A stretch of 64,000 nucleotides of DNA, from positions 278,300 to 342,299 of the forward strand of contig MFEQ01000006.1 in NCBI GenBank assembly GCA_001777665.1, read 5' to 3'. The notes under the pieces were generated by a model. It saw only the letters and a list, made by a program, of their open reading frames with translations, had not been told where the DNA came from and made no database searches. The translations under genes and the position numbers were made by a program. Shown here piece after piece: positions 6,197 to 49,577 of the stretch. The first letter of the stretch is position 1, and every line of letters begins with the position of its first letter. The stretch is from Candidatus Doudnabacteria bacterium RIFCSPHIGHO2_02_FULL_42_25 (lineage in GTDB: Bacteria > Patescibacteriota > Doudnabacteria > UBA920 > O2-02-FULL-48-8).

Positions 6197-6226
6197 AAAG
6201 GCCAGCTCCTTGCGGGGCTGGCCTTT
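6197..6226 (+). terminator. rho-independent terminator after pth
   Basis: 10-bp stem AAAGGCCAGC/GCTGGCCTTT followed by a T-rich tail. Confidence 0.6.
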
Positions 6227-6239
6227 CAAATTCTTTCGA

Positions 6240-6860
6240 GCTAGACGGCGACTTACATCGCCGGCGGGTAGTACGGCCGACCGTTGACGAGGCGTTGCGG
6301 CACTTTTTTTTGTGTCGCTACATCGCGCCGACCGTCAGTATTGTTCTTTTCACGTTGGTTGCGTCGGTAGAGCACATCCGACGCGCTACCATTGGGACGG
6401 ACAGCTTTGTCCTCCCGACTACTGGACATGTTGTTGCTCACTCGATCCTCCGAAACGACGACGATAAGGTTAAGAACGTAGCCCCTCTGGGATCGGGACC
6501 GATTCTTTCATGCCTGTCTGGGGGCAGGCGAGGTTGGGGGTCTTACGAGGCTAGGAGTTGCTTCCTTCCGGTCGCACCATGTCGAGGTCGAAGAATGTCC
6601 TTGCTGCATCCAGTGACGTGGTTCTGGTTGTCACTGGTGCCAGCTGATCATCCACCGCGATGCCGGTGAAGATACGCTGCGCCATGGGCGGTATCCCAAG
6701 ATAAACCGGGGTTTCCGCTTTGCGAACAAGCCTTGGTGGACCTAAGTTTTCTTTCATCCCCAGACTCCGATATTCAATTGTCCTATTGTTCTAGTCGACG
6801 TACCACCCAACATGGGTAGTTTCGCGCTCGCTTTCCCTCCTTAGGGTTTGCGATCTTTAG
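6240..6860. other. GC-rich (~55%) non-coding block, probably structured RNA gene(s) of untyped class
   Basis: ~620 bp with no credible ORF; the six-frame ORFs here are R/C-rich nonsense. GC content is well above the ~40% background. It contains many local hairpins and a CCGGAAGGAAGCA 13-mer on the minus strand. Confidence 0.4.
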
Positions 6861-6910: not shown

Positions 6911-7018
6911 GAAGCGAGGTACTTGGTAAAATTAACTCGCGCAGGACGACGGTCCGAGCGCGTAGGCCAAAAATTCAGCAGAATTTTATGGCCGGTAATT
7001 TTACCAACGTACCGAGCG
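6911..7018 (+). ncRNA. ~110-nt conserved structured element, copy 1, upstream of dprA
   Basis: AAGCGAGG…GTAAAATTA.CTCGCGCAGGACGACGGTCCGAGCGCGTAGGCCAAAAATTCAGCAGAATTTTATGGCCGGTAATTTTAC…CCGAGC. Compensatory changes are seen relative to copies 2 and 3. Confidence 0.55.
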
Positions 7019-7205
7019 TAATATTCTTGACCCCACCTCCGAGTGTTGGACTAGTCCGGAAAACCGTACCGGCCCAAACTTGAGGTTACTAGGAAACAAT
7101 AGGAGGGATGCTGCTTCCATTCACCACTCATGAGGTAGGATGAAGAATACTACTGGTTGTATTGTTAATGATACGAATATATAATAATAGCACAAAATCA
7201 CCCTC

Positions 7206-8309
7206 GTGTCAACACTCAATCTATTAGACGAAAAAATCTACGGAAACGCACTAAATTTGATTCCAGCATTGGGTCCAGTCAATTTAACCAAGCTTCTCAA
7301 CTACTGTGGGGGTTTTCTCAAGGCCTGGAATGCTGATGGACAAGATTATTTCAACGCTGGGATCTCGCCGAAAACTGTCGATAAGATTATAACAGATAAA
7401 CAAAAAATCAATCCAGAGCAATCATTCGCCGAAACTACTCGAAGACAAATCGAAATTTTGCTGATTTCTGAAAAATCGTATCCGCAATTGCTAAAAGAAA
7501 TTATTCCGGCGCCACCTCTGCTTTATGTCCGCGGCAATAAAAAAGTTTTGAATTCGCTAACAGTCGCTGTAGTCGGCACACGCAAAATCTCGAGCTACGG
7601 CACGATGGCTTGTGAAGAAATTACACTCGGTCTCACAAACAGTGGCATGACGATTGTTTCTGGACTAGCATACGGCGCCGACGCTGTAGCTCTCCAGACA
7701 GTAGTTGATAATCGTGGTAAAGGCATCGCCGTGCTGGCTTCTGATCTCAACGACACGAGTATTGCGCCGCGGTCAAATTTTAATCTAGCTCAAAAAATCC
7801 TAGAAAAAGGGTGTCTGGTTTCTGAATACCCGCTGGGCTACAGCGTACAAAAACAAAATTTCCCTATTCGTAATCGAATCATTTCTGGTTTAAGCCTCGG
7901 CACACTAGTTGTCGAAGCTGACATCGAAAGTGGAGCGCTGATCACGGCTAATTATAGTTTAGAACAAAATCGGGAAGTATTCGCTATACCCGGATCTATT
8001 TTTTCACCAACCAGTCGGGGCACGAATCAGCTCATCAAATCCGGAGCGAAAGTCGTGACTTCGGCCAATGATATTTTGGAAGAGCTGAATTTAGACACTG
8101 AAATTGTGGAGGCTCAAACCAACAATATCGAAATTACAGAAATCGAAAGCAAAATTCTGGAATTGCTTTCAAAAATCCCGATTCATATCGATGAGATTAT
8201 CAAATCTGCACAGGTCAATCCAGCGATCATCAGTGCGAATTTGACTCTGTTGGAAATAAAAGGCCGGATAAAAAATCTCGGAGGCGCGAAGTATGTTAAA
8301 ATTCGTTAG
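7206..8309 (+). CDS. dprA: DNA processing protein DprA (Rossmann-fold DNA-protecting protein, SMF family)
   Basis: The block VAVVGTRKISSYG…SGLAYGADAVALQ…FPIRNRIISGLSLGTLVVEA is the SMF/DprA signature. GTG start. Confidence 0.85.
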   Translation: MSTLNLLDEKIYGNALNLIPALGPVNLTKLLNYCGGFLKAWNADGQDYFNAGISPKTVDKIITDKQKINPEQSFAETTRRQIEILLISEKSYPQLLKEIIPAPPLLYVRGNKKVLNSLTVAVVGTRKISSYGTMACEEITLGLTNSGMTIVSGLAYGADAVALQTVVDNRGKGIAVLASDLNDTSIAPRSNFNLAQKILEKGCLVSEYPLGYSVQKQNFPIRNRIISGLSLGTLVVEADIESGALITANYSLEQNREVFAIPGSIFSPTSRGTNQLIKSGAKVVTSANDILEELNLDTEIVEAQTNNIEITEIESKILELLSKIPIHIDEIIKSAQVNPAIISANLTLLEIKGRIKNLGGAKYVKIR

Positions 8310-9396
8310 TCGTTTTACGTCAGCGCCACGCGTATCGGTTAACGTTAGACGATACGCGCAGCGCAGCCTTATAACGCTCACCGTGATTCTTCTCGTTCTT
8401 TTAATAGTTGTCTTTCTAAGTCCTAAAACTGCCCTAGGGCCAAAAACTGATAACCAAAAACCAAACCAACTTCCAAAACCTCCAACCACTACCCTGTTTT
8501 TTGCGGGTGACATCATGCTTTCGCGCAATGTCGCAGGCAAAATTTATACAGCCAACGACGTTCATCTCCCTTACTTAAACGTCAGTGAGAAAATTTTATC
8601 CGCTGATATTGCTTTTGCGAATCTAGAATCTCCGTTTAATAGCCAAGGAGATCATTCAGTCCAGAACAGTTTGATATTCAACGCTGATCCGAAATTCGCG
8701 GATGGACTATCAAATGCTGGTTTTGATATTTTATCTACAGCCAACAACCATTCGTTTGATCAGGGTAAATCCGCAATCGAATTTACGAGGGTCACCCTCG
8801 TAAATAATAATCTCGTGTCAGTTGGCACAGGAGTAGACTGTCACAGCGGAAAAATTATAGAAAAAAATCAGATCAAATTTGGATTTTTGGCTTACTCTTA
8901 TGCCGCACACAATGATGGTGGTAAAATTCCAGATCCTCTGGTTTGCGACTGGAATGATGAACAACAAATTGTTGCTGATATTCAGGCCATGCGGCCACAG
9001 GTCGATTTTTTGATCGTTTCCGCGCATATAGGCACTGAATACAAGCGAGTTCCAGACGAAGACAATGCATTGCGAGCGCGCAAAACCATAGATGCCGGAG
9101 CGGATTTATTTATCGGCCACCATCCACACTGGATCCAAACGATTGAGCAATATCAAGGTAAATGGATTTTCTATTCTTTGGGCAATTTTGTATTCGATCA
9201 AATGTGGAGCCAAGATACAAAAGAAGGTTTGACTATTACTGTCACACTTGAAGAAAAAGCGATCAAAAAAATCGAACTTAATCCGGTAGTTATCGAAAAT
9301 TATTGTTGTCCCATATGGGCTGATGACATGGAAAGTTTGGCCATCTTAAAGAAGATTGGCTTGACAACTAGAGTTTTATTAGGTGAAAATAAGTGA
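8293..9396 (+). CDS. CapA/PgsA-family metallophosphatase-like protein (poly-gamma-glutamate capsule synthesis family)
   Basis: FFAGDIM…FANLESP…ANNHSFD…SAHIGTEY…GHHPHWIQ…GNFVFDQ motifs are present. The exact start is uncertain because a palindrome lies at the 5' end. Confidence 0.75.
   Translation: MLKFVSRFTSAPRVSVNVRRYAQRSLITLTVILLVLLIVVFLSPKTALGPKTDNQKPNQLPKPPTTTLFFAGDIMLSRNVAGKIYTANDVHLPYLNVSEKILSADIAFANLESPFNSQGDHSVQNSLIFNADPKFADGLSNAGFDILSTANNHSFDQGKSAIEFTRVTLVNNNLVSVGTGVDCHSGKIIEKNQIKFGFLAYSYAAHNDGGKIPDPLVCDWNDEQQIVADIQAMRPQVDFLIVSAHIGTEYKRVPDEDNALRARKTIDAGADLFIGHHPHWIQTIEQYQGKWIFYSLGNFVFDQMWSQDTKEGLTITVTLEEKAIKKIELNPVVIENYCCPIWADDMESLAILKKIGLTTRVLLGENK
8321..8364. repeat. palindromic element, family 3, copy 1
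   Basis: CAGCGCCACGCGTATCG-GTTAACGTTAGA-CGATACGCGCAGCGCAG. A near-identical copy lies at 15165-15210. Confidence 0.7.
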
Positions 9397-9399
9397 GTT

Positions 9400-11709
9400 A
9401 TGGCAAAATCACTAGTCATAGTAGAGAGTCCGACTAAGGCAAAAACGATTTCCAAATTCCTCGACGGAAAGTATAAAGTCGAGGCGTCTTTTGGTCATAT
9501 CCGCGATTTGCCGACCAGTAAAATGGGAATCGACATCGAACATGATTTCGAACCTACATATGTCATTCCACCGAAAGCAAAAAAGAAAATTGCTGAACTA
9601 AAAAAATTGGCGAAAGATGCCGAAGAAATAATTCTCGCGACTGACGAAGACCGCGAAGGTGAAGCCATTGCCTGGCATTTGGTAGAGGCTTTGGGCTTAA
9701 ATAAAACTCATAAACCAGAAGCTAAAATCAAACGCATCGTTTTCCACGAAATTACGAGGTCGGCTATAGAAACCGCGATGGAACATCCTCGGGAGCTGGA
9801 TATAGATTTAGTCGACGCCCAGCAAGCACGCCGAGTACTCGACCGGTTGGTGGGTTATGAACTCTCCCCTTTCTTATGGAAGAAGGTTAAGAGAGGCTTG
9901 TCAGCCGGACGTGTCCAATCTGTCGCTGTGAGATTGGTCGTGGATCGCGAACGCGAAATCCAAAAATTTACTCCAGAAGAATATTGGAACATTATTGCGA
10001 CTTTTCATAAAGATAATAATTTCCTAGGTAAACTCAACAAAATCGACGGCAAAACTTTGGATAAACTCGGGATAAAAAACGAGACTCAAGCCAAGAAAAT
10101 TTTAGCTGATCTCGCCAACCGACCAGCCGAGGTCACAGAGGTTACGAAAAAAGAAGTCCGACGCAATCCAGCTGCTCCTTTTATTACATCTTCACTCCAG
10201 CAAGAAGCAGCTCGGAAGCTCGGTTTCAGTGCCAAACAGACCATGATGTACGCCCAGCAATTATATGAAGGTGTGGAACTTGGCGACGGCAGTGCGACAG
10301 GTTTAATTACCTATATGAGAACGGATTCAGTTAATCTTTCTGAGTTTGCGCTCGATTCAGCCCACAAAGCGATCATGGAACGATATGGTAAAGACTATTT
10401 ACTCGATACTCCTCGCAAATATGCGTCCCGATCGAAAAACGCCCAGGAAGCACATGAAGCCATCCGACCAACTGATTTACAAAGAGATCCCGAAAGTCTC
10501 AAAGACCACCTCGATCGCAACCAACATCGACTTTATGATTTGATTTGGAAACGAACAATCGCTAGCCAAATGCCAGAAGCTGTATTTGATCAAACCGCGG
10601 TTGATATCGAGATTAAAGGTGATAAAAAATACACCTTCCGTGCCAATGGCCAAGTCATCAAATTCGATGGATTCATGAAAGTTTACCTAGAAGGCACTGA
10701 TGAAGAAGAGCCTACTGAAGAAGACCTGCCCGCCATGCCTCGTGGTGGGCCAGATGACAAGGCGTGGCAGGCGGGCGGGTTGCTACCTGAACTCAAGGTT
10801 GGCGATAAACCAAAAGTCGTTAAAATTTTACCGAAACAATCTTTCACCCAACCTCTACCTCGCTACACTGATGCCACTCTGATCAAAGCTTTAGAAGAAC
10901 AAGGGATCGGCCGTCCCTCGACTTATGCGCCAACCCTGACAACAATTCAAGAACGCGATTACGTCAATAAAATTGATAAAAAATACCATCCGACTGAAAT
11001 GGGTTTTATCGTTAATGATATTTTAGTTGAACATTTCCCAAAAATTGTAGATCTCCAATTCACAGCGCTTATGGAAGATGAATTGGATGGCATAGCCACG
11101 GGTGAAAAGGCCTGGGTGCCGGTGATCAAAGAATTTTATGGCCCCTTCCATGAAAATTTGAAAACTAAAGAAAAAGAAGTCGAACGCCATGTCGAAATTT
11201 TGGATGAAAAATGTCCTCTTTCGGGTCATCCCCTACAGATTAAGTTTGGCCGGTTTGGAAAATTTGTGGCATGTACTAATTATCCAGAATGTAAATTCAC
11301 CCGTCCGATGCCAGAAGAACAAAAATTGATCGAAGAAAATAGCGGGGAAATTTGCGATGTTTGCGGTCGTCCTATGATCGTAAAGTTTGGTCGGTTTGGT
11401 GCTTTCCTCGGTTGCAGTGGTTATCCGGATTGTAAAAATATCAAAAAGATTCAAAAAGGTACTGGTGTCACTTGCCCATCCTGCGGCGAAGGCGAATTGG
11501 TAGAACGACGCAGCAAACGTGGAATTTTCTATTCTTGTTCCAAATATCCGAAATGTAAATTCCTGATGAATGGTAAACCGACTGGTGAAAAATGCCCGCA
11601 ATCGGGCGATCTATTGATGGAAACTAAAAACGGTACTCTGAAGTGCAGCAACAAAGAATGTGACTATGAACGCGAAGCTGCCCCCGCTGAAGTTGAAAAA
11701 GCAAAATAA
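9400..11709 (+). CDS. topA: DNA topoisomerase I with three C-terminal zinc ribbons
   Basis: Toprim N-terminus (LVIVESPTKAKTI), an active-site Tyr region and repeated CxxC…CxxC zinc-ribbon modules are present. Confidence 0.9.
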   Translation: MAKSLVIVESPTKAKTISKFLDGKYKVEASFGHIRDLPTSKMGIDIEHDFEPTYVIPPKAKKKIAELKKLAKDAEEIILATDEDREGEAIAWHLVEALGLNKTHKPEAKIKRIVFHEITRSAIETAMEHPRELDIDLVDAQQARRVLDRLVGYELSPFLWKKVKRGLSAGRVQSVAVRLVVDREREIQKFTPEEYWNIIATFHKDNNFLGKLNKIDGKTLDKLGIKNETQAKKILADLANRPAEVTEVTKKEVRRNPAAPFITSSLQQEAARKLGFSAKQTMMYAQQLYEGVELGDGSATGLITYMRTDSVNLSEFALDSAHKAIMERYGKDYLLDTPRKYASRSKNAQEAHEAIRPTDLQRDPESLKDHLDRNQHRLYDLIWKRTIASQMPEAVFDQTAVDIEIKGDKKYTFRANGQVIKFDGFMKVYLEGTDEEEPTEEDLPAMPRGGPDDKAWQAGGLLPELKVGDKPKVVKILPKQSFTQPLPRYTDATLIKALEEQGIGRPSTYAPTLTTIQERDYVNKIDKKYHPTEMGFIVNDILVEHFPKIVDLQFTALMEDELDGIATGEKAWVPVIKEFYGPFHENLKTKEKEVERHVEILDEKCPLSGHPLQIKFGRFGKFVACTNYPECKFTRPMPEEQKLIEENSGEICDVCGRPMIVKFGRFGAFLGCSGYPDCKNIKKIQKGTGVTCPSCGEGELVERRSKRGIFYSCSKYPKCKFLMNGKPTGEKCPQSGDLLMETKNGTLKCSNKECDYEREAAPAEVEKAK
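10725..10775 (+). repeat. 51-bp palindromic element inserted in-frame in topA
   Basis: CCTGCCCGCCATGCC-N21-GGCGTGGCAGGCGGG. It encodes LPAMPRGGPDDKAWQAGG. Confidence 0.85.
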
Positions 11710-11741: not shown

Positions 11742-11930
11742 ATGGAATCAGAAGCATACAACCACGAAAAAATTAAGGCTGAACTCGATGATTTACAGAG
11801 ACAAATCGCTCAGCTAGAAGCAGAAAACAATCCAGCAAGCAAGGAAGACCGAGATCTTCTGCACCAAAGGTACGAAGCATTACAGAAAAAATATAGCGCT
11901 GATCACGAACACCTCTCTAGAGCAGCATAA
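11742..11930 (+). CDS. small coiled-coil hypothetical protein
   Basis: 62-aa ORF followed immediately by a strong bidirectional terminator. Confidence 0.4.
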   Translation: MESEAYNHEKIKAELDDLQRQIAQLEAENNPASKEDRDLLHQRYEALQKKYSADHEHLSRAA

Positions 11931-11965
11931 AAAAAATCCCCCGAGATATCGGGGGATTTTTTTAT
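11930..11965. terminator. bidirectional rho-independent terminator
   Basis: AAAAAATCCCCCGAGATATCGGGGGATTTTTTT. Confidence 0.8.
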
Positions 11966-12702
11966 TTCTTATCATGACCAGTGAAGGCTTTAAGAACCTC
12001 CAACGGTATAGTGAAAACAATCGTATTCGACGCGTCAGAGCTAATGTCATTCATGGACTGTAATGTTCTCAAATGGAGAGCACCTGGTGCCGCTGATAGT
12101 ATTCCTGCGGCTTTGGCCATATTACCTGCCGCGGCTACTTCTCCTTCGGATTGAATGATCACTGCTCGCCTTTCTCTTTCTGCTTCTGCCTGTTTCGCTA
12201 TGGTCCGCTCCATTTCTTGAGGCAATGCTACATCTTTCAGTTCGACGTTGTCAACCTTGATTCCCCAATCATCCGATGCCGCATCGACTATTGTGCGAAT
12301 TCTATCTGATATTGCATCCCGCTGACTTAAAAGTTCATCCAATTCTACCTGTCCGACGACATTTCGCATGGTCGTTTGCGCTAGCTGGGACATGGCGTAG
12401 AAAAAATCTTCAACTTCGAGTACAGCTTTGGATGCATCCGCGACTTTATAATAAATAACTGCATTGACCCCGACAGCGATGTTGTCTTTGGTGATCGCTT
12501 TTTGATCTGGCACATCGACTGCTTTGACCCGGATATCCACTCTAGTCATGCTCTGGAACACTGGCACGACTATCCGCCAACCTGGTTCTTTGATCCCCGA
12601 AAAACGACCCATAGTGAACATCACTCCGCGCTGGTATTGGTTGACCTGACGCAAGAACGACAGAAACAAAATCACCAAAACTATTACTACTACATATGTC
12701 AT
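11962..12702 (-). CDS. SPFH/band-7 (stomatin/prohibitin-like) membrane protein
   Basis: N-terminal TM segment and an SPFH core (…IDIRVKAVDVPDQKAITKDN…VGQVELDELLSQRD…). Confidence 0.8.
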   Translation of the reverse strand: MTYVVVIVLVILFLSFLRQVNQYQRGVMFTMGRFSGIKEPGWRIVVPVFQSMTRVDIRVKAVDVPDQKAITKDNIAVGVNAVIYYKVADASKAVLEVEDFFYAMSQLAQTTMRNVVGQVELDELLSQRDAISDRIRTIVDAASDDWGIKVDNVELKDVALPQEMERTIAKQAEAERERRAVIIQSEGEVAAAGNMAKAAGILSAAPGALHLRTLQSMNDISSDASNTIVFTIPLEVLKAFTGHDKK

Positions 12703-13859: not shown

Positions 13860-15173
13860 TCAATCATTTTTCATGAAGATCCTGTTTTCGGTAGTCCAAT
13901 AAGAAATCGCTTTGGTGAATGGTAAAATAGATAGAAAATATCTCAAATCCGCGGCTTTGCGGATGAGCCAACCCGAAAATCCGGACATAATCACACTCGG
14001 TGTATAAAAAATAGCAAATTTTCCAGTCACAGGAATAATAAATCGTAACGCTACTGGATGATAACTAAGCAGCGGCTTGTCTTTGATCATGCGGTAAATA
14101 TTTTTGGCGACATATTTGCCTTGATTGATAGCTTCTTGTGCAGTTTGTGGCACTGGCTTTTTTGTAACTGGATCCACTATTCCGGTATTGTCCCCGGCGA
14201 GAAATACGCGTGGGTATTGCGATAAATTCAAAGCAGTCGCCACGATGGTCCGATCTTTTTTATCTCGTTCGAGTTCTCCGCCAGCTGGCAGATCTAGCGG
14301 CAACCGGATGGACCTGACTCCACCCGTCCAAATCAGCAAATCACAATCCACCCGTTCTTTCATATTTAGAATCACGTGATCCTTCCCAGTGTCAGTAATC
14401 AGTGATGAGAATCTAGTTTCAATTCCCATAGTAGTAAGTCGACTGCCGATTATTGCCGAAATTTTCTCCGACAGTCCGGATAAATAACTCGTCCCCCCTT
14501 CGACCATCACAACCTTGTAATTATTTAAATCTTTTTGATGGTGTGCACATTCATGCTTGAGCAGATTGTGTACTTCCCCGGCAAATTCAGTTCCAGCAAA
14601 ACCAGCACCACCGATAATAATGCAGCCACTGTCCTTTTTCGCAACTAAATCTTCGATACGATTCCGAATCATAATCGCATCTTCTAGACTTTTCAGTGTA
14701 AATCCGTACTTATCCAAATTCGGAATGTCATAATAATCGGGAACACTTCCCATAGCGATCACCAAATAATCAAAAGCTAAGATGCGCGAGTCAGTTATTA
14801 CTTTGCCGTTTATTAAATCAATCCGATCAACATAACCTTTGAAAACTTTTACTCTTGTTCGTTTAAAAATGTCATCGAAAGAAATCGCCACGGTATGCTT
14901 AACTTTTTTTGCTTCGACTAATCGGTGTTCTGTCGTGGCTGCTTCATAGAGAGCGGAATTAAAAGTTTGATAATCCTTTCGGTCAACTAAAATAATTTCG
15001 TATTCTAAATCATCGTGGAGGTAATTGTTCAAATCCAAAGCCGCTCGGACTCCGGCGAATCCGCCACCAAGAATGATAATATGTTTTTTCTCTTCTGGAA
15101 TTTTTGATTTCATGAATAAAAACAGCCCCTTTATTATACCATAAGCTGCGTTAATAGTTTTTCGGCAGCGCAA
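13860..15173 (-). CDS. type II NADH dehydrogenase-like FAD/NAD(P)-binding oxidoreductase
   Basis: Two GxGxxG dinucleotide folds are present (IIILGGGFAGV and IIIGGAGFAGTEFAGE). The C-terminal extension contains a near-copy of the PPAGG palindrome. Confidence 0.75.
   Translation of the reverse strand: MRCRKTINAAYGIIKGLFLFMKSKIPEEKKHIIILGGGFAGVRAALDLNNYLHDDLEYEIILVDRKDYQTFNSALYEAATTEHRLVEAKKVKHTVAISFDDIFKRTRVKVFKGYVDRIDLINGKVITDSRILAFDYLVIAMGSVPDYYDIPNLDKYGFTLKSLEDAIMIRNRIEDLVAKKDSGCIIIGGAGFAGTEFAGEVHNLLKHECAHHQKDLNNYKVVMVEGGTSYLSGLSEKISAIIGSRLTTMGIETRFSSLITDTGKDHVILNMKERVDCDLLIWTGGVRSIRLPLDLPAGGELERDKKDRTIVATALNLSQYPRVFLAGDNTGIVDPVTKKPVPQTAQEAINQGKYVAKNIYRMIKDKPLLSYHPVALRFIIPVTGKFAIFYTPSVIMSGFSGWLIRKAADLRYFLSILPFTKAISYWTTENRIFMKND
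14278..14290. repeat. near-palindrome CCGCCAGCTGGCA in-frame, encoding LPAGG
   Basis: 13/14 match to CCGCCAGCTGGCGG. Confidence 0.5.
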
Positions 15174-15210
15174 CGCGTATCGGTTAACGTTAGACGATAC
15201 GCGCGGCGCC
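15165..15210. repeat. palindromic element, family 3, copy 2 (intergenic)
   Basis: CAGCGCAACGCGTATCGGTTAACGTTAGACGATACGCGCGGCGC. Confidence 0.7.
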
Positions 15211-15221
15211 GACGAATAACT

Positions 15222-15938
15222 CTAGACGATGTCTTTTTTAGTTATGAATTTATGCTTGCCTAGGGGTAAATCACCCAACTTTACTTTTCCAACCCGGATT
15301 CGCTTGAGATTGCGAATCGTATAACCAAAAGCCGCAAACATTCTACGGACTTGGCGATTCCAGCCTTCGTGAATTGTGATATAGATAGTTGTACCGTTTG
15401 CTCGAACTTTGGCTGGTGCTGTTTTCTTGCCATCCAATTCCATGCCTTCCCGAAGTTTCGTGATCCGTCCTTCTGATAACTCTTTATTCAAAACCACCTC
15501 GTACTCTTTTTCGTGTTCTTTCGACGGATGTGCCAAGTCCTGAGTTAATTCTCCGTCATTAGTAAACAATAATAATCCTTCGGTATTGAAATCCAGGCGC
15601 CCGATGGGCCAGACCACTGATCGAAGATCTGCAGGTAATAAATCAAAAACAGTTTTGCGTTTTCGGGGATCATTCCGCGTAGTCAAATATCGCTTCGGTT
15701 TGTTCATCATGAGATAGATTAAACTTTTAACAGTTAACTTTTTACCATTAACCTCTACACGGTCTTTGGCAATGTCGGCTTTGGTTCCCAGCTCACGAAC
15801 TACTTGGCCATTCACTTTGACTTTGCCAGCCAAAATCAACTCCTCGGCATGACGCCTGGAAGCAATTCCTGCTTGGGAGATTATCTTTTGTAAACGCTCT
15901 TGCATGAGGTTTAATGCTATAATTAATTTATTAACCAT
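15222..15938 (-). CDS. pseudouridine synthase, RsuA/RluB family (S4 domain plus catalytic domain)
   Basis: An S4 domain at the N-terminus and the catalytic-Asp motif GRLDFNTEGLLLFTNDG are present. Confidence 0.85.
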   Translation of the reverse strand: MVNKLIIALNLMQERLQKIISQAGIASRRHAEELILAGKVKVNGQVVRELGTKADIAKDRVEVNGKKLTVKSLIYLMMNKPKRYLTTRNDPRKRKTVFDLLPADLRSVVWPIGRLDFNTEGLLLFTNDGELTQDLAHPSKEHEKEYEVVLNKELSEGRITKLREGMELDGKKTAPAKVRANGTTIYITIHEGWNRQVRRMFAAFGYTIRNLKRIRVGKVKLGDLPLGKHKFITKKDIV

Positions 15939-21468: not shown

Positions 21469-21934
21469 CTACGAAATTACGAAATTAATACGAAAATACG
21501 AACTAGTTAATATTAAGAATTCTTTTGTATTGTAATCCTTTTGCAGTAAAGTTTGCTAGTATTCCAAGTTTTAAATCTAAAGCCTTTAGATACGCTATAA
21601 CTTGTTCAATATTCTTATAAGAAAAATTATTATCTTTCTTGATTTCGAGTGCAACTTTATTCTCGACAAGAAAATCTAGGCGATAAGAGCCTATTGCCTT
21701 ATCTTTATACATCAGAGGGATTCTAGCCTGCTCAGTAAATGAAAGATTGCTCTTTTTCAACTCAATTGCAACAGCTCTTTGATAGTATTTCTCGTGATGT
21801 TTATTGCCTAGCTGCTTAAATACTTCAAACAAAACGCCGACTATTTGATAACTTAATTCTGGATAAACTAGATTTTTTTTACTACCACTGGTTTAGGCAT
21901 GTTCGTACTTTCGTAATTTTTTCGTAGTTCGTAG
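21469..21934. repeat. TACGAA×4 … TTCGTA×4 palindromic element whose loop contains the GxxExxY gene
   Basis: Left arm CTACGAAATTACGAAATTAATACGAAAATACGAA (21469-21502). Right arm TTCGTACTTTCGTAATTTTTTCGTAGTTCGTAG (21902-21934). Confidence 0.6.
21503..21832 (-). CDS. GxxExxY-family protein (PD-(D/E)xK nuclease-like)
   Basis: YQRAVAIEL…IGSYRLDFLVENKVALEIK matches the GxxExxY protein family signature. Confidence 0.65.
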   Translation of the reverse strand: MFEVFKQLGNKHHEKYYQRAVAIELKKSNLSFTEQARIPLMYKDKAIGSYRLDFLVENKVALEIKKDNNFSYKNIEQVIAYLKALDLKLGILANFTAKGLQYKRILNIN

Positions 21935-21936
21935 AT

Positions 21937-22863
21937 TTAAATTTCGAGTTTCTCTACCTCGACAGCAACTTTCGAGAGTCGGAAAAATTGCAGTTGCAAT
22001 AGTGATTCAAAAATTACCCAAGTAAAAAATGTGGCAACCCATCGCAAGACAAATGAAAATGTTCGCAGTAAAGCTAAAATAATTAAAGTAAAAATAATTG
22101 GAAACAATTCAGTATTTTTTTCGGCCGTTGCCCTTACTCTATCTACTGCAAATTGCGCGACGACTTCAGAAAGCGGCTGATCTCCAGGAATTTGGATATT
22201 GAATTGACGGAAAAAATCTTGCTTGGCTTGTTCCAAATATTGTTGCTTAAACTCTTCGGGAATTTGATCAAAATCAGGATTCTGCTTTACGGTCTCGGCT
22301 CGGATATACTGATCCAAGGTTTGATTAAGATCAATTCCTGTCCGGCCTTCGCTCCCCAAATACCGAGTGCTCTTTGCCGCGGATCGGCCAAGTGCTTCAT
22401 AAAATGAATCAGGATTGGCTTTAAATTCTGCCGAGGTATTGTAGTAAATATTCAAACTCAATGAAAGCAAAAAAGCATAAATGATGACATTGATACCAGC
22501 AGACGTCACACTGCGAATCGAGAAATGCTGCCGCACAGCTTCCTCCGATCGAATCCGTCGTTCAAACCACAGCATCAGGCTTATAAACACTAGGCCTGCC
22601 AGAGCCACGACCCATGCTTTAGGAAAAATCAGTAAGTAAGTAACTAGGGCTAGAGCGCCGAATCCATAGGTAATCCAGCGGTTGTTGTTTACCAGCCCAA
22701 ACAGAGTCAGAAATGCTATCGATATAGCTGTAACTAGCCCGGGCCAGATCCAAAACAATAAGGGTTTGTCACCAAATAAAGCCGAGTTAATCAAAACCCA
22801 GTCGAGAACCAAGAAAAACAAACTAACAAACCCTGAAGTTATAATTTTTATTTTTGTGGTCAT
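21937..22863 (-). CDS. hypothetical polytopic membrane protein
   Basis: 308 aa with multiple TM helices. Confidence 0.5.
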   Translation of the reverse strand: MTTKIKIITSGFVSLFFLVLDWVLINSALFGDKPLLFWIWPGLVTAISIAFLTLFGLVNNNRWITYGFGALALVTYLLIFPKAWVVALAGLVFISLMLWFERRIRSEEAVRQHFSIRSVTSAGINVIIYAFLLSLSLNIYYNTSAEFKANPDSFYEALGRSAAKSTRYLGSEGRTGIDLNQTLDQYIRAETVKQNPDFDQIPEEFKQQYLEQAKQDFFRQFNIQIPGDQPLSEVVAQFAVDRVRATAEKNTELFPIIFTLIILALLRTFSFVLRWVATFFTWVIFESLLQLQFFRLSKVAVEVEKLEI

Positions 22864-25067: not shown

Positions 25068-25090
25068 TGTTTTGTCCTTTCTTGTTTATA

Positions 25091-25162
25091 CCATTTCGAG
25101 CGATTAGCGAGAAATCGCTTCTTAAAGCTTTAGGGAGCGATCTCTCACTTCGTTCGAGATGG
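25091..25162 (-). promoter_or_regulatory. ~72-nt intercistronic repeat, copy 1 (grpE-dnaK spacer)
   Basis: ACCATTTCGAGCGATTAGCGAGAAATCGCTTCTTAAAGCTTTAGGGAGCGATCTCTCACTTCGTTCGAGATGG. Confidence 0.55.
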
Positions 25163-25165
25163 TAA

Positions 25166-25645
25166 TTAATTAATGCTCTGTTTTCCTACGGCCACTTTGG
25201 CCGGAATTATTACTTTAGTATTTAATATAAATCCTGGCTGTATCTCTTTAATTATTTGCCCTTCTTCTCCCTCCACTTCTTCTATAGCCTCGTGCATCGT
25301 GGGATCAAACTGCTCGCCAACTGTTTTGATCTTTTTCAATCCCAGTTCTTCCATATCTTTTTCCAGCTGCATGATCGTGGCTTTCAATCCTGTGACCCAA
25401 TCCTTATAAGTCTCATCACTCGGCGCGTATTTCAGGACTTGTTCGAGGTTCTGAAGAGAGGGCATGAGTTTTGACACCGTCAGTTCTTTCGCAAATTCCA
25501 GAATTTCTTTCTTATTTTCTTCATTTCTGCGTTTAAAGTTTTCAAAATCCGCCGCAGTCTTCTTCCAGTTATTGAGGAGTTCTAGATTTTTTTCTTGTAA
25601 TTCTTCTAGACTTAAATTCTCTTGTTGATCTTTTTCGTCTGTCAT
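25166..25645 (-). CDS. grpE: nucleotide exchange factor GrpE
   Basis: Coiled-coil N-terminus and a GrpE core (…DFENFKRR…) are present. Confidence 0.9.
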   Translation of the reverse strand: MTDEKDQQENLSLEELQEKNLELLNNWKKTAADFENFKRRNEENKKEILEFAKELTVSKLMPSLQNLEQVLKYAPSDETYKDWVTGLKATIMQLEKDMEELGLKKIKTVGEQFDPTMHEAIEEVEGEEGQIIKEIQPGFILNTKVIIPAKVAVGKQSIN

Positions 25646-25665
25646 CTTTTTTTTACCATTTCGAG

Positions 25666-25729
25666 TGATTAGCGAGAAATCGCTTCTTAAAGCTTAAGGG
25701 AGCGATCTCTCGTTCCACTCGAGATGGGA
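25666..25729 (-). promoter_or_regulatory. ~72-nt intercistronic repeat, copy 2 (hrcA-grpE spacer)
   Basis: ACCATTTCGAGTGATTAGCGAGAAATCGCTTCTTAAAGCTTAAGGGAGCGATCTCTC…CGAGATGG. Confidence 0.55.
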
Positions 25730-25886
25730 TTTAAAATAAATTAATATTAAAAGTCTCAGCCGAGGAATCAGAAATAACACTTGAAAATATTCCAGCGAGA
25801 GTTTCTAAACCTTCTTTTTCTCTTGTATAATCGTTGAGCTTTCTTTCAATAACTATTTTTGGCTGAGGGTTATCTATATACATCAT

Positions 25887-26651: not shown

Positions 26652-26680
26652 ATTATAAAATTAGCACTCAACCCTGTCAA
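26652..26680 (-). promoter_or_regulatory. sigma70 promoter of hrcA-grpE-dnaK
   Basis: On the minus strand: TTGACA, a 17-nt spacer, then TATAAT. The -35 box lies inside CIRCE 2. Confidence 0.75.
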
Positions 26681-26689: not shown

Positions 26690-26800
26690 TCGCTCGGACA
26701 GATTGTAAAATTACCGACCGTAAAATTCTGCTGAATTTTCGGCCTATGCGCTCGCACCGTCGTGCTGCGCGAATTAATTTTACAACTATCCTCGCTTAAG
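26690..26800 (-). ncRNA. ~110-nt conserved structured element, copy 2 (minus strand, abutting the hrcA promoter)
   Basis: The reverse complement aligns with copies 1 and 3. It shows compensatory changes (GGAC/GTCC to GCAC/GTGC, and CCA…TGG to CCG…CGG). Confidence 0.55.
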
Positions 26801-26850
26801 CATTTATTGGAATTATGCTAGAATTTAATTACACATGAGGAGGGTTCACT

Positions 26851-27087
26851 ATGATCACACGGACCAAGGTTGCCGTAGGTGTTACCACCACGGTGGCCGG
26901 TATAGTGCTACTCAGCGTCATCTATGCACATCGGTACTCCCTCGACCCACGGCTGGTGATCGTGCCCCGCGAAGATCCACCCGAAGATGACTGGGGTCGA
27001 CCATTCCCCGAATTCCCTCCAGAGCAACACAAACTAGGCTCACAGCTCCAAGCAGATCCGAGCGATCGTTGGTCGACAGTCCACTAG
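26851..27087 (+). CDS. small GC-rich hypothetical protein (foreign-looking)
   Basis: Strong SD GAGGAGGG before the ATG. One TM segment. Followed by a terminator. Confidence 0.5.
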   Translation: MITRTKVAVGVTTTVAGIVLLSVIYAHRYSLDPRLVIVPREDPPEDDWGRPFPEFPPEQHKLGSQLQADPSDRWSTVH

Positions 27088-27099
27088 TCTCGCCGACTA

Positions 27100-27142
27100 G
27101 GCTTCCAGCTTCCCGCTTCCCCCACCGGAAGCTTTTTTTTAT
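27100..27142 (+). terminator. rho-independent terminator
   Basis: GCTTCC-CCCACC-GGAAGC followed by T8. Confidence 0.7.
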
Positions 27143-27178
27143 TTCACTAATTTACCAGTAATACTTATCCCTTGTCCC

Positions 27179-40479: not shown

Positions 40480-43380
40480 TTAGACTCGAACCGGTTTCAG
40501 GGCTTTGGCCAAGTATTGGCCGGTGTAACTTTTTTTGACTTTCGCGACGTCTTCTGGGGTGCCAACTGCCACGACCTGTCCGCCCTTATTCCCACCTTCA
40601 GGACCGAGATCAATAACCCAGTCCGCCGATTTGATGACATCGAGGTTGTGTTCAATGACTAGAACTGTGTTCCCTTTCTCGACTAAACGATTGAGTACGC
40701 CGAGTAAGCGCTTGACGTCATCAAAGTGCAACCCAGTCGTTGGTTCATCTAAAATGTATAGTGTGCGGCCAGTGGAAGCTCTGGATAATTCAGAAGAGAG
40801 TTTGATACGTTGCGCTTCTCCGCCAGAGAGTGTGGTAGCTTGCTGACCCAAATGCATGTAACCGAGACCGACTAAAGATAGCGTTTCTAATTTACGAGCA
40901 ATTAATGGCACGTTGCGGAAAAAAACATGTGCTTCATCCACTGTCATTTCCAGGACATCAGAAATATTTTTACCTTTGTAGTGGATGTCGAGAGCTTCTT
41001 TATTATAGCGTTTACCTTTACACTCTTCACAAGCGACATAGACATCTGGCAAGAAATGCATTTCGATTTTGATTACCCCATCGCCGCCACAGACTTCACA
41101 ACGGCCACCTTTAACATTGAAACTAAATCGGCCGGCTTTGTAACCACGCATGCGAGCTTCCGGTACAGATGCAAACAGATCGCGAATATAGGTGAAGACG
41201 CCGGTATAAGTCGCTGGGTTGGAGCGTGGTGTCCGGCCAATCGGTGACTGGTCAATATTAATAACTTTGTCGATGTTGTCGATGCCGAGGATTTTTTTAT
41301 GTTCACCTGGTGATTCTTTGGCATTGTAGAAATAAGCAGAAAGGGATTTGGCTAAAATCTCATTGAGCAATGTTGATTTGCCACTGCCCGAAACTCCAGT
41401 CAGACAAACAAATTTACCCAAAGGGATTTCGACATCAATGTTTTTAAGGTTGTGTTCAGTCGCACCTACAACTTTGATAGTTTTACCATTCCCTTTCTTG
41501 CGTGCCATAGGTACCGAGACTGATTCAGCACCAGACATGTACTTGCCAGTGAGAGAATTTTTATCTTTGGCTACTGTATTAGGTGTGCCTTCAGCAACTA
41601 ACTGCCCGCCGTGTTTGCCAGCACCAGGCCCGATATCTACGACCCAGTCCGAGGCCCAGATGGTTTCTTCGTCGTGTTCAACCACGATGACAGTGTTTCC
41701 GAGATCGCGCAAATTTTTCAAAGTTCGAAGTAATCGATCGTTATCGCGTTGGTGAAGCCCGATCGATGGTTCGTCTAAGATATAGAGCACGCCGGTCAAT
41801 CCTGAACCGATTTGGGTGGCCAGACGAATGCGCTGGGCTTCTCCGCCAGAGAGTGTATCCGCAGATCGATCGAGAGTCAGATAATTCAAACCGACATCTT
41901 GTAAAAATTTCAAACGAGAAACAATTTCTTTGAAGATCTGATGGGCGATTTTCATGTCTTTCTCGGACATTTTCTTCGGCAGGGATTCTGTAAACTCAAT
42001 CGCTTCGTCAATTGAGAAGTTGGAAACATCGACAATCGATTTCGCATCGATAGTGACTGCCAAAAATTCTGGTTTCAATCTCTTCCCTTTACAGGTCGGA
42101 CATTTCTGCACCCGCATATACTGTTCAATCTCACCACGCATATAGTCTGATTCGGTTTCTTTGTATTTGCGCATTAAATTATGGACCACACCCTCAAACG
42201 GACCGAAGTGGCCATAACCAGATTCATCCTGAAATGAAATTTTCGTGTCTCCAGTACCGTACAAAACTGCATCCAGTGCTTTCTTCGGTAAATCTCGAAC
42301 TGGAACGTGGATAGAAAACCCGTAAACTTTCGAAACTGCTTCGAGAACTCGGGAATACCAAGACATTCTGGAGGTAGTTTTGCTCCATGGTCGGATCGCA
42401 CCTTCGGCGAGAGTCAATCTTTTATTTGGGATGACTAATTCAGCCTCGATTTCCAGTCTAGTGCCAAGTCCGGTACAATCCGGACATGCGCCGTGTGGAG
42501 AGTTAAAAGAGAAGTTCCTTGGGTTCAATTCAGGTAGATTAGTATGGCCCTCCGGACAGGCAAAATTAGATGAGAGCAGTATCTCTCCCGCCTGCCACGC
42601 CTCTATCTCTTGCTTTGACCGAGGCATGGCGGGCAGGTCTTTCTCATCTTTGGCAATTATCACGGAATCGTTCCCCAAATCCAGTGCTGTTTCGAGAGAA
42701 TCAGCAATTCTGGCTCGATCTCCTGAATCCAAAGATATCCGATCCACCACAATATCTATAGTGTGTTTTTTCTTTTTGTCGACATTGAGCTGCAACGCCT
42801 CGGACAAATCCATAATCGTGCCGTCAAATCGGATTCGCTGGTAGCCGGATTTTTTGGCTTCTTCCAGTAAATGTTTGTGCTCGCCTTTTTGGTCACGAAC
42901 CAGTGGCGCCATGATCACGATCTTGGTGGATTCTGGCCAACTGACGATCTGGTCTACCATTTGAGTGACACTTTGTCCGGTAATTTTTTTACCACAAACC
43001 GGACAGTGCGGAGTGCCGACACGAGCGTAGAGTAATCTCAAATAATCATAAATTTCGGTAACAGTTCCGACAGTCGAGCGCGGATTGTGTGATGCAGATT
43101 TCTGGTCGATAGAAATCGCTGGTGAGAGTCCTTCTATCTTGTCGACATCAGGTTTATCCATAAGTCCTAAAAATTGTCTGGCGTAAGCCGAGAGGGATTC
43201 AACATAGCGTCGCTGACCTTCCGCGTATATGGTATCGAATGCCAAAGAGGATTTGCCGCTACCTGAAAGACCCGTGATGACCACGAGTTTGTTTCTGGGG
43301 ATATCGACATTGATGTTTTTTAAGTTATGGACCCGAGCTCCCCTTATTACTATCTTATCTGACATTGCGTATTCTCCCAT
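40480..43380 (-). CDS. uvrA: excinuclease ABC subunit A
   Basis: Two ABC ATPase modules with zinc fingers are present. The likely true start is the internal Met at 43365. Confidence 0.95.
42587..42637 (-). repeat. 51-bp palindromic element inserted in-frame in uvrA
   Basis: On the coding strand: CCTGCCCGCCATGCC-N21-GGCGTGGCAGGCGGG. It encodes [18 protein letters not shown]. Confidence 0.85.
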
Positions 43381-44820: not shown

Positions 44821-46641
44821 ATGTCGAAACAGCTAGAACAAAAGATTAAAGACCTCCCCCAGAAACCCGGTGTCTATGTATTCAAAGATGCCAAAGGGTT
44901 GGTTTTGTACGTCGGGAAAGCGATCAAACTCAAAAACCGAGTTAGTTCTTATTTCAAACGGGACGGTGATGATGGTCGCGGACCTCGGATCCAACAAATG
45001 ATTTCTCTAATTCGTGACCTCAACTACACGGTCACAGATAATGAAACTGAAAGTTTGATCCTGGAGAAAAATTTCATTTCACAACTCAAACCCAAATACA
45101 ACGTTGATCTCCGTGATGACAAAAATTATTTATTTATTAAAATAAATATCAAAGATGAAATCCCGACGATTGGCTATGAACGAAAACTGATGGATCGAAG
45201 TAGCCGTTATTTCGGTCCTTATACTTCAGGACTTGCCATCAAAGACACACTTCGGATGCTCCGAAATATTTTTCCTTACTGTTCCAACAAAAAAATCGGT
45301 AATAAACCTTGCTTCTTTTATCACATCGGTAAATGTCCGGGTGTTTGCTTTGGCAAAATAAGTACCCAAGAATACCGCGACAATTACATCAAAAAAATTA
45401 TCCAATTTCTGGAAGGCCGCCAATCTCAAGTTCTGAAAGATTTACAAAAACAGATGCGATCTTTTGCGTCCCATAAACAATTTGAAAAAGCAGCGAAGGT
45501 TCGCAACCAAATTTTTGCCCTGAACCGAGTGCTCGAACGACAAAAATTGGTTTACCCGAAAAAACTCGACCAAGATGTGTTCTCTGTTTATACAGACCTG
45601 CCCGCCATGCCTCGGGTAAAGCAATCCGACAAGGCGTGGCAGGCGGGTGGTGTCGCATCCATCAATTTATTCATGATCCGAGAAGGAAAACTCATCCAAA
45701 AAGAAAACTTCATCATGGAAAATACGAAACAAGTCCCGGTTGATGAAATTTTGCAAAGTTTTCTCGAAAGATATTATCTAGAGGCTTCAAGCATACCCAA
45801 AGAAGTATTACTTCCAGCCCAAATTATCCCTGATGAACTATATCCGGTATTTATCGGTCGTCGATTTCCCAAATTTACAGTACCAGTCCAGGGTCAAAGA
45901 CTACAGCTTCTGAAATTAGGCCAAGAAAATGCCAAACAATATCTGGAAAGCACCACAGATAAACATTTGTTAGAAGAAGCTCGATTGCTCGCCTCGCTCA
46001 AAGAATTGCAACGAGTTTTGGATCTACCGAATTTGCCAGGTCGCATCGAAGCGTACGACATTTCGAATATCCAAGGCACCAACCCTGTCGGCTCGATGGT
46101 TGTGTTTGACTTCGCCCGACCGAAAAAATCTGATTATCGTAAATTTAAAATTAATAAAAAACAAACTCCTGATGACTTCGCTATGATGCGCGAAATGCTC
46201 GAACGACGATTTCGCAACGATTGGCCTCTTCCCGATCTGATCCTGATCGATGGCGGGAAGGGTCAATTGAATGCAGCCCTTTCAGTGCTTCAGGTTTCAG
46301 GTTCCAGGTTTCAGGTCATTGGCCTCGCCAAACGCTTAGAAGAAATTTTTACTCCCCTTAATACTTCCCCCTTGATACTTCCTACTAACTCCCAAGCACT
46401 TTATCTCTTACAACGCATCCGCGATGAAGCTCATCGCTTCGGCGTGAAATACCATAGACATTTGCGATCGAAGGGATCTCTCTCTTCTGTGCTCGATCAA
46501 ATCTCCGGCATCGGTCCGGCCAAGAAAAAAACATTGCTCCAAAAATTTGGCTCTGCTGCCAAAGTTCGTTCTGCTAGTCTTACAGAACTTGCCGCGATCG
46601 TTGGGTCTAAAACCGCCGAGAAGATCAAGGCATCTCTTTGA
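44821..46641 (+). CDS. uvrC: excinuclease ABC subunit C
   Basis: GIY-YIG N-terminus (GVYVFKD…LYVGKA), UvrBC-interacting region and C-terminal HhH. The true start is at 44821, six nt after a TATAAT box; the N-terminal extension in the ORF track is spurious. Confidence 0.9.
   Translation: MSKQLEQKIKDLPQKPGVYVFKDAKGLVLYVGKAIKLKNRVSSYFKRDGDDGRGPRIQQMISLIRDLNYTVTDNETESLILEKNFISQLKPKYNVDLRDDKNYLFIKINIKDEIPTIGYERKLMDRSSRYFGPYTSGLAIKDTLRMLRNIFPYCSNKKIGNKPCFFYHIGKCPGVCFGKISTQEYRDNYIKKIIQFLEGRQSQVLKDLQKQMRSFASHKQFEKAAKVRNQIFALNRVLERQKLVYPKKLDQDVFSVYTDLPAMPRVKQSDKAWQAGGVASINLFMIREGKLIQKENFIMENTKQVPVDEILQSFLERYYLEASSIPKEVLLPAQIIPDELYPVFIGRRFPKFTVPVQGQRLQLLKLGQENAKQYLESTTDKHLLEEARLLASLKELQRVLDLPNLPGRIEAYDISNIQGTNPVGSMVVFDFARPKKSDYRKFKINKKQTPDDFAMMREMLERRFRNDWPLPDLILIDGGKGQLNAALSVLQVSGSRFQVIGLAKRLEEIFTPLNTSPLILPTNSQALYLLQRIRDEAHRFGVKYHRHLRSKGSLSSVLDQISGIGPAKKKTLLQKFGSAAKVRSASLTELAAIVGSKTAEKIKASL
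45597..45647 (+). repeat. 51-bp palindromic element inserted in-frame in uvrC
   Basis: CCTGCCCGCCATGCC-TCGGGTAAAGCAATCCGACAA-GGCGTGGCAGGCGGG. It encodes LPAMPRVKQSDKAWQAGG. Confidence 0.85.
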
Positions 46642-49456: not shown

Positions 49457-49486
49457 AAATCAATTTGATAACTCAGCAAAATTTTA

Positions 49487-49558: not shown

Positions 49559-49577
49559 AAATAATACATTTACCCAT

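Follow-up and report, generated by a model that had tools for sequence, protein, structure and literature searches.

A covarying three-way-junction repeat of Candidatus Doudnabacteria, probably a small mobile palindromic element of CPR genomes

The 64,000-nt stretch of Candidatus Doudnabacteria bacterium RIFCSPHIGHO2_02_FULL_42_25 analysed here (the window; contig MFEQ01000006.1, positions 278,300 to 342,299) carries three copies of an element of about 109 nt, located at 6911-7019 on the plus strand (copy 1), 26690-26798 on the minus strand (copy 2) and 53980-54088 on the plus strand (copy 3). This element is probably one subfamily of a small, non-coding and non-autonomous mobile repeat of the candidate phyla radiation (CPR, or Patescibacteria), rather than a regulatory RNA specific to the promoters found beside some of its copies. 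Such a reading is based on the occurrence of the element in multiple copies, its absence from the corresponding sites of relatives, its patchy distribution, the sharing of subfamilies between genomes, and its presence in either orientation and in varied contexts, including the reading frames of essential genes. The repeat family is undescribed, no description of it having been found in the literature by limited full-text searching.

The three copies had already been recognised in a first-pass annotation of the window, and their limits have now been refined to 109 nt each. Copy 1 (127.8 bits) has a variable GC-rich region of the minus strand on one side and, on the other, a conserved minus-strand RNA block situated upstream of dprA. 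Copy 2 (120.5 bits) lies between a small divergent GC-rich open reading frame (ORF; 26851-27087, plus strand) and the CIRCE and promoter module of hrcA, and copy 3 (118.5 bits) between the rnj promoter and the intrinsic terminator (53936-53973) with which a GC-rich island closes. The sequence at the element ends is AAGCGAGG...CCGAGCG. Pairwise identity among the copies is 79-89% over an alignment of about 109 nt; a repeat finder matched 6911-7017 to 53980-54086 with 91% identity and reported 26691-26814 as an inverted repeat of both, at 80%. The window contains exactly three occurrences of a reduced core motif, CGSANNNNGACGNNNNGAG, where 0.02 are expected, and an unfiltered covariance-model scan of the whole window returned only the three copies, at 116-121 bits, the next independent match (reverse strands of the copies excluded) reaching 13 bits with an E-value of 0.2. 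No copy was detected by either of two covariance models in a further 10 kb of the host genome, of which 76 kb in total have been examined. The RNase J and DprA proteins of the window are 100% identical to those of Candidatus Doudnabacteria bacterium RIFCSPLOWO2_02_FULL_42_9 (assembly GCA_001780055.1). Another sample yielded a contig of the same species (L126, positions 1-70; L numbers are our handles for loci outside the window) that begins inside copy 3 after low-complexity G/A sequence, which indicates that the repeat breaks short-read assemblies.

Three of the six reading frames are free of stops in all three window copies. A pseudo-protein built from these frames, used in order to find copies that had been called as ORFs or inserted in genes, had no match among 5.8 billion proteins. 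Scans of viral contigs with two patterns gave chance matches only, and BLAST searches of phages and plasmids gave no match to the element. When the 4227 models of Rfam 15 were applied to the window at the gathering threshold, three tRNAs were the only result, and nothing was placed on the element when copy 1 with its flanks was searched at E<=10. At E<=0.1, seven loci belonging to other subfamilies showed transfer-messenger RNA (tmRNA), large-subunit rRNA and group I introns nearby and no credible match to the element. The sole Rfam match overlapping a copy was MIR821 in L102, far below threshold at 33 bits against a gathering score of 249.

Each copy is predicted to fold as a three-way junction composed of a long closing helix (P1) and two hairpins (P2 and P3), with a minimum free energy of -47 to -52 kcal/mol (z -7.4 to -9.2), and none of 200 shuffled sequences folded equally well. 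In copy 1, P1 is formed by a 5' strand at 6918-6934 and a 3' strand at 6996-7013, giving 17 bp and one bulge. Below it, the base of the element reads GC then GA at 6914-6917, opposite GA then GC at 7014-7017, and is predicted to form a 2x2 tandem G.A internal loop with two G-C pairs closing it; comparison by eye shows a purine-rich GA loop at the equivalent place in the other subfamilies. P2 (6936-6962; CTCGCGCAGGACGACGGTCCGAGCGCG) consists of a lower stem (P2a), a GCA/GA internal loop, a 4-bp upper stem (P2b) and a GACG loop. It is followed by P3 (6965-6993; GGCCAAAAATTC-AGCA-GAATTTTATGGCC), comprising a 5-bp outer stem, a bulged A, a 7-bp A/T stem and an ANCA loop; all of these features of copy 1 are on the plus strand. 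The invariant core of P2 reads CGCAGCACGACGGTGCGAG in copy 2 (26751-26769, minus strand), where the GCAC/GTGC variant is found, and CGCAGGACGACGGTCCGAG in copy 3 (54009-54027, plus strand). The same fold is stable under DNA folding parameters and as significant as under RNA parameters. Resemblances to the hammerhead, to group II intron domain V and to the kink-turn were considered by eye, and none fitted.

Relatives of the element occur well outside the window. A scan of one genome per species with an 18-nt pattern of the P2 core returned 41 loci, six of which hold the whole structure: L075 from a Doudnabacteria metagenome-assembled genome (MAG), L040 from Nomurabacteria, L064 from Minisyncoccia, L041 from the Patescibacteria group, and L062 and L035 from unclassified MAGs. 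The remaining loci, from GC-rich genomes outside the CPR, are chance matches which score 20-28 bits with the family model and in which the rest of the structure is missing. A metagenome scan added L101 and L102, and a second model, based on the family, added three L040 copies missed by the pattern. The family alignment thus obtained holds 14 distinct sequences, nine or ten of them collected with the pattern that fixes the P2 core, and its units measure 85-150 nt. Copy 2 is closest to L101 (89%), closer than it is to copies 1 and 3, and copy 1 is closest to L075 (90%); nothing besides the element in the L075 and L101 contigs aligns to the host genome at the DNA level. The four copies of L040 fall within 8 kb and form two tail-to-tail doublets (1707-1923 and 7490-7707), each of which joins one copy of each of two subtypes 19-35 nt apart. 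These two composite units are oppositely oriented and 5.6 kb apart, an arrangement which recalls the doublets of REPINs (hairpin-forming pairs of repetitive extragenic palindromic, or REP, sequences).

The contexts of these copies vary widely. In L064 the element is a sense, in-frame and stop-free insertion in dnaE that contributes about 55-57 extra residues, with DnaE residues 1-190 and 245-287 aligning to the adjacent segments 692-885 and 883-925 of the Thermus aquaticus (Taq) Pol III alpha subunit. In L041 it lies antisense, in frame and stop-free in truB as a perfect 120-nt hairpin of 40 codons, the predicted TruB having about 35-40 residues more than that of Thermotoga maritima (chain 1ze2). 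These two are the only intragenic copies among the 14 known. In L062 and L035 the element separates smpB from a genuine tmRNA gene (83.7 bits), which follows downstream at a distance of 55 nt in L062. It lies antisense between a segment of 23S rRNA and a group I intron in L102, and between convergent gene ends in L075 and L101. By eye, no target-site duplication was found at the five Doudna-type copies or at the truB copy, a 4-nt CACA at the dnaE copy being unconvincing, and no conserved target sequence at the five Doudna-type copies.

Sequence comparison within this family shows that the stems are free to change provided that pairing is kept. In an alignment of five close copies (the three from the window, L075 and the metagenome contig L101), RNAalifold predicts 41 pairs, nine of them with changes on both sides. 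Two of these nine are the substitutions reported in the first-pass annotation, namely GGAC/GTCC to GCAC/GTGC and the replacement of an A-U by a G-C pair in P3, and both are real. Paired cells account for 97.1% of the alignment as opposed to 90% in shuffles, none of 500 shuffles reaches the observed covariation, and pairing falls to 28-46% when partner columns are slid. Across all 14 members, the paired fraction of cells is 94.5% and both partners have changed in 35 of 39 pairs, a result equalled by none of 500 shuffles, with slid controls at 35-51%. The proposed conserved and covarying secondary structure is therefore confirmed, and substitutions in the additional copies, both in the close set and in the wider family, are compensatory rather than random. 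By region, all 19 pairs of P0/P1 have changed on both sides; P3 is 97.9% paired with both-side changes at nine of its 12 pairs; and all four pairs of P2b covary while being paired in 100% of cases. For P2a, the register given by RNAalifold (pairs 30:52 and 32:50) was dropped because it fails in 6-7 of 12 sequences; the shifted register adopted in its place gives higher overall pairing and places all four Watson-Crick types at a single pair, columns 30:50 occurring as GC, UA, AU and CG. The nucleotides invariant throughout the family are all located in P2: C-G-N-A before the upper stem, the GACG loop, and G-A-G after the stem. Members recovered by the model rather than by the pattern have changed all four P2b pairs and retain the GACG loop and the GA motif, so that P2 conservation is not merely an artefact of how the family was collected.

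A structure conserved in this manner could belong to a functional non-coding RNA, be it the product of a set of related small RNA genes or a module acting in cis to which a conserved CPR protein binds. This RNA would have been duplicated and occasionally captured within other transcripts. P2 would then serve as a site for protein binding or tertiary contact, and this explanation would be compatible with mobility. In its favour are the strong covariation, the invariant loop and internal-loop nucleotides, the GA-rich internal loops such as are found in many protein-binding RNAs, and the internal rather than terminal position of the conserved portion. The strands are also unequal: the named strand folds better than its complement in eight of 10 distinct members, by up to 12 kcal/mol in copy 2, and it is the one to carry G-U (G-T) pairs, from which it follows that one particular single strand matters. 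In addition, the element is co-oriented with the downstream gene in five or six promoter-adjacent cases (copies 2 and 3, L040 copy A, and L062/L035). The strand asymmetry, however, does not discriminate between RNA and single-stranded DNA (ssDNA), and compensatory change alone is no proof of RNA function, since it has also been reported for mobile hairpin DNA in the form of REPINs (PMC3116915). The copies share neither a promoter nor a terminator, their 5' flanks being merely loosely AT-rich, and none of the 4227 Rfam families matches them. Copies 2 and 3 are in spacers that probably experience little or no transcription, owing to the divergent genes in one case and the terminator-promoter gap in the other, which makes a free-standing RNA function less likely; copy 1 would be transcribed antisense, from a minus-strand promoter at 7212-7184. 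Other members are antisense within truB and within an rRNA locus, and close relatives share the flanking regulatory DNA and are devoid of the element. Taken together, a functional RNA is an unlikely explanation.

The mobile-repeat reading is best illustrated by the orthologous loci of related Doudnabacteria, whose RNase J and DprA proteins are 84-89% and 61-72% identical, respectively, to those of the window. At rnj, the gene order, the promoter and the 5' leader are retained in L127, L128, L129-131 and L132-134, and the element is absent. A tRNA-Leu and a tRNA fragment directly adjoin the rnj promoter in L132, whereas the same interval of the window extends over 4.4 kb and includes an IS1595 transposase, GC-rich ORFs, a terminator and copy 3. 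At dprA, L135-L137 display pth, a variable GC-rich stretch, the conserved block and dprA, again without the element, and their similarity to the window begins at 7019/7020 (TAATATTC...), exactly at the 3' end of copy 1. At hrcA, L127 has a terminator, 7 nt, and then CIRCE with its TTGACA, and no element. About 190 kb from some nine related genomes yielded no copy with either covariance model, and none was present at the other Doudnabacteria loci L142-L144. As the relatives keep the flanking control DNA and the element is missing from all three sites, the window copies are lineage-specific insertions. Two further observations concern the same loci. In Doudnabacteria RIFCSPLOWO2_01_FULL_44_21, a diversity-generating retroelement with an RVT_1 reverse transcriptase and bAvd-like genes lies between der and pth (L143 5166-8445 and L144 5164-8445), adjoining the same variable slot upstream of dprA. 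L132 contains a gene for a 208-aa Y1_Tnp protein of the IS200/RAYT type (REP-associated tyrosine transposase) between rnj and trpS (11786-12412; also L133 2011-2637), and no element copy in the 20 kb examined.

It had been proposed that each copy ends at the -35 box of a promoter. This is correct for copy 2, which ends 10 nt from the -35 box of the hrcA promoter (26652-26680, minus strand; TTGACA-17-TATAAT, inside CIRCE), and for copy 3, which ends 4 nt from that of the rnj promoter (54092-54120, plus strand; TTGACA-17-TATAAT), both promoters lying outside the element. They match the consensus at 12/12 positions, as does only one other promoter in the window, and hrcA and rnj are the only sites at which a promoter was called right after the element. 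At copy 1 no promoter was called at the TTGACC concerned. The genes had, moreover, been interchanged: the ORF after copy 1 (7206-8309) encodes DprA and that after copy 3 (54365-56113) RNase J. The TTGACC of copy 1 is part of the 3' closing stem of a structured RNA candidate of about 140 nt on the minus strand (window 7019-7177), so that this copy adjoins the 3' end of a neighbouring RNA candidate and not a promoter. The candidate is conserved in L135 (9802-9950), L136 (9795-9945) and L137 (9786-9935), with a predicted minus-strand fold of -53.8 kcal/mol (z -4.6, compared with -0.7 on the plus strand) and 48 predicted pairs, many of them G-U and eight compensatory. It is preceded by the conserved promoter at 7212-7184 and followed by different GC-rich small ORFs in every genome compared, and may serve a variable gene slot as its leader or as an element resembling a riboswitch. 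Rfam assigned it to no family, the best match being NLPC-P60 with an E-value of 2.9, and a suspected identity as signal recognition particle RNA was not supported by Rfam.

The adjacency to promoters has led to the suggestion of a promoter-proximal RNA, insulator or terminator, that is, an accessory acting as DNA or RNA which is recruited or targeted to the upstream edge of strong promoters and protects them from foreign DNA or from transcription in the neighbourhood. Copies 2 and 3 do border two of the three perfect promoters of the window, the L062 copy stands close upstream of a tmRNA gene, and each of the three window copies stands at a boundary between variable, GC-rich DNA and the conserved core. 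Nevertheless, relatives possess the same hrcA and rnj promoters without the element, and there would be nothing to insulate at the window sites: the genes upstream of copies 1 and 2 are divergent, which leaves no read-through to block, and copy 3 sits behind the canonical terminator that ends the upstream gene. A terminator scanner called this true terminator (53936-53963) and the CIRCE palindrome, and found the signature of a hairpin plus T-run in none of the window copies. Its only call inside an element was a 5-bp stem on the antisense strand of copy 2 (26760-26772), no copy being called as a whole; outside the window, copy A of L040 has a T-run directly 3'. Members situated between convergent gene ends (L075 and L101), in the rRNA/intron region and within ORFs (L041 and L064) also do not fit such a role, nor does the copy 1 site, where the presumed promoter is not one. 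An insulating or promoter-accessory function is accordingly improbable.

The 380 nt on the 5' side of each window copy have a GC content of 0.51-0.52, within the top 4-7% of the window. The first-pass annotation had noted GC-rich DNA 5' of copies 1 and 3, which holds true for both, although copy 2 is no different in this respect and the restriction to two copies does not stand. It had also considered an integration-site motif, by which the element would be an attachment or junction sequence for GC-rich foreign DNA, or the end structure of larger GC-rich mobile units arriving together with it. The position of copy 3 as the last feature of a 4.4-kb insertion that runs from the tRNA-Leu fragment to the rnj promoter and includes an IS1595 transposase would agree with this, as would the exact start of homology to relatives at the 3' ends of copies 1 and 3. 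Yet the three GC-rich flanks are mutually unrelated by blastn and tblastx and differ in gene orientation, the rnj and dprA loci of relatives hold variable GC-rich genes and no element, and copies in other genomes have no GC-rich flank. Neither an integrase nor attC-like core sites have been found among the annotated neighbours, and the in-frame copies in dnaE and truB bear no cargo. We regard a junction motif as improbable. A longer element of which the GC-rich flanks would be diverged parts was also rejected, given that the flanks share no similarity by blastn or tblastx.

Several features of these flanks were observed independently of the element. Segments with a GC content of 0.56-0.60 in a genome of 0.43 GC occupy 6200-6750, 26850-27150 and 50800-53950 of the window, and different GC-rich small ORFs are found at the same positions in L128, L129 and L135-L137 (between pth and dprA, and between an SBP gene and rnj); these segments look like hot spots for variable genes with a GC content well above that of the host. 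The interval before rnj (49370-54090) begins with a tRNA-Leu (49370-49456) and a 66-nt partial duplicate of its 3' half (49497-49562), followed by the IS1595-family transposase (49860-50654), a perfect promoter at 50675 and GC-rich ORFs without Pfam matches (50737-53931). It looks like a 4.4-kb island, judging from the direct junction of tRNA, tRNA fragment and rnj promoter in L132.

In the mobile-repeat account, a trans-acting enzyme would recognise the folded single strand, whether ssDNA or RNA, through the P2 motif and would copy or move the element, in a process which would resemble the mobilisation by RAYT/Y1 transposases that is proposed for REPINs. In a compact genome copies would persist only where they are harmless, such as in gaps between a terminator or divergent gene and a promoter, in convergent gaps, in introns and in tolerant in-frame loops of proteins. 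The three window copies would be survivors of this kind, dispensable for the control of hrcA, rnj and dprA. The gap before the next promoter measures only a few nucleotides, with 7 nt in L127 and about 12 nt in total around copy 3, and it is among the few sites at which an extra 109 nt would do no damage; survivorship can therefore explain the adjacency to promoters. A life cycle at the DNA level is favoured, taking into account that copies 2 and 3 are expected to be scarcely transcribed and that copy 1 would be transcribed antisense, with the P2 motif as the putative recognition site of the mobilising protein.

A number of points weigh against mobility. No transposase, RAYT, reverse transcriptase or other partner is linked to the element among its annotated neighbours and in the 76 kb of host sequence, and a target-site duplication and a conserved target are both missing at the five Doudna-type copies inspected by eye. 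Among the sequences compared, neither an empty/occupied polymorphism within one population nor an excision product was seen. The conserved part is an internal hairpin, while mobile repeats normally conserve their termini, and the pattern is more typical of a functional RNA. The near-identity of P2 across distant CPR lineages requires either strong purifying selection or horizontal spread. Survivorship explains only loosely why two of the three perfect promoters are occupied and why all three copies have a GC-rich 5' flank. Finally, the family amounts to only 14 sequences, most of which (nine or ten) came from the pattern fixing the P2 core. A bolder and rather doubtful proposal is that the P2 motif (C-G-N-A, GACG loop, G-A-G) serves as the handle of an undescribed structure-specific mobilisation or processing system of the CPR, which would copy a three-way-junction single strand without target duplication and perhaps prefer the unwound upstream edge of strong promoters. 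If true, the element would found a class of its own among the mobile nucleic acids of bacteria, or be a functional RNA that is mobile, going beyond one more miniature inverted-repeat transposable element (MITE).

Among known repeat systems, the element appears to work most like the Rickettsia palindromic elements (RPEs) and REPINs, and it probably belongs to neither. RPEs are palindromic repeats found in frame within unrelated housekeeping genes, whose products thereby gain a translated peptide segment (PMC10969869). Both they and the CPR element are palindromic units, about 100-150 nt long and predicted to form a stable hairpin, that are dispersed in multiple copies in a reduced genome and inserted in intergenic sites as well as in frame within genes (here dnaE and truB) with an otherwise intact host protein; the likeness, which is one of functional analogy only, extends to the lack of a known transposase and of any target duplication found. 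RPEs are, however, from another phylum, and the CPR family has a three-way junction with an invariant internal hairpin, spans several distant lineages as divergent subfamilies and is intragenic in only two of 14 cases. REPINs are thought to move as folded ssDNA aided by RAYT transposases (PMC3116915). REPINs and the REP-RAYT system share with the CPR element the character of non-autonomous hairpin repeats of about 70-110 nt, with hairpins kept by compensatory changes, strand-specific folding, no target duplication and inverted doublets as in L040. Unlike the CPR element, a REPIN consists of two inverted copies of one short REP and is extragenic, whereas here P2 and P3 differ (GACG and ANCA loops) within a long P1, no GTAG-type REP motif is present, and the family also occurs inside ORFs. 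No RAYT or Y1_Tnp gene was found among the annotated ORFs and genes in the 76 kb of host sequence or near any copy.

MITEs and similar small repeats (Correia/NEMIS, ERIC, BOX and RUP) are likewise small, non-coding and multi-copy with terminal inverted complementarity, represented here by the 17-18 bp arms of P1. They are often located just upstream of genes, and can alter expression, be co-transcribed and create in-frame fusions (PMC10969869). The CPR element differs in having no target-site duplication, in termini which covary instead of being conserved, and in the lack of a recognised promoter or integration host factor site. No parent insertion sequence sharing its ends was found in the window. 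IS1595 was considered as such a parent and set aside; its transposase (49860-50654) is the only one in the window, and no element-like inverted repeats flank the gene.

Recognition of a folded single strand is also a property of palindrome-associated transposable elements (PATEs), which derive from IS200/IS605, and of the attC sites of integron cassettes. In both, bulges and mismatches of the hairpin outweigh the sequence of the stem, and insertion takes place without duplication. The CPR element may be comparable to them in its imperfect folded single strand and missing duplication. PATEs have separate hairpins at their left and right ends and insert 3' of a fixed tetra- or pentanucleotide, whereas no such target is present at the five Doudna-type copies. 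The attC sites contain R''/R' core sites (RYYYAAC / GTTRRRY) and form cassette arrays beside an integrase, whereas the ends of the element lack these core sites, its copies are dispersed and no integrase occurs among the annotated neighbours. The element is unusual in that it folds into a three-way junction, keeps a single internal hairpin invariant while its termini covary freely, and is spread over distant CPR lineages.

The host genome carries several families of hairpin repeats. A 90-nt repeat, 88% identical between 25080-25169 and 25645-25734, flanks grpE within the hrcA-grpE-dnaK operon, and its gene strand forms a strong hairpin (-36 kcal/mol, z about -7). This repeat could represent a further family, or else a signal for processing or attenuation inside the operon. 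Other small repeats of the window are located at 8297-8378 and 15142-15223, as well as at 10722-10778, 42610-42640 and 45594-45650. One such family has an 82-nt unit with a GC-rich hairpin (ACGCGTATCG...CGATACGCG), and another is a palindrome of the GGCGGGCAGG/CCTGCCCGCC type with three occurrences. The 5' untranslated region of rnj, of about 240 nt (54125-54364; also in L127, L128, L129 and L132), contains blocks conserved across Doudnabacteria, for example TTTTGTGTTAAYT...GGCC..GGGTTTAGCCC, which probably constitute an RNase J leader. Short repeats of the TTCGTA type in this region recur at 21900-21937 and 62702-62805.

The CPR bacteria have tiny and tightly packed genomes which are known almost only from metagenomes, and their repeats and mobile DNA have barely been described. 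A repeat that is common to Doudnabacteria, Nomurabacteria and other CPR members, and is tolerated in dnaE and truB, would show that the CPR host selfish palindromic elements of the kind found in Rickettsia and as REPINs. The element serves as a marker for strain-level variation and for assembly breaks. For RNA discovery it carries a caution, in that clean compensatory covariation in a multi-copy element is not by itself the mark of a regulatory RNA. For the biology of these organisms, it suggests the existence of an undescribed protein by which the invariant hairpin is recognised.

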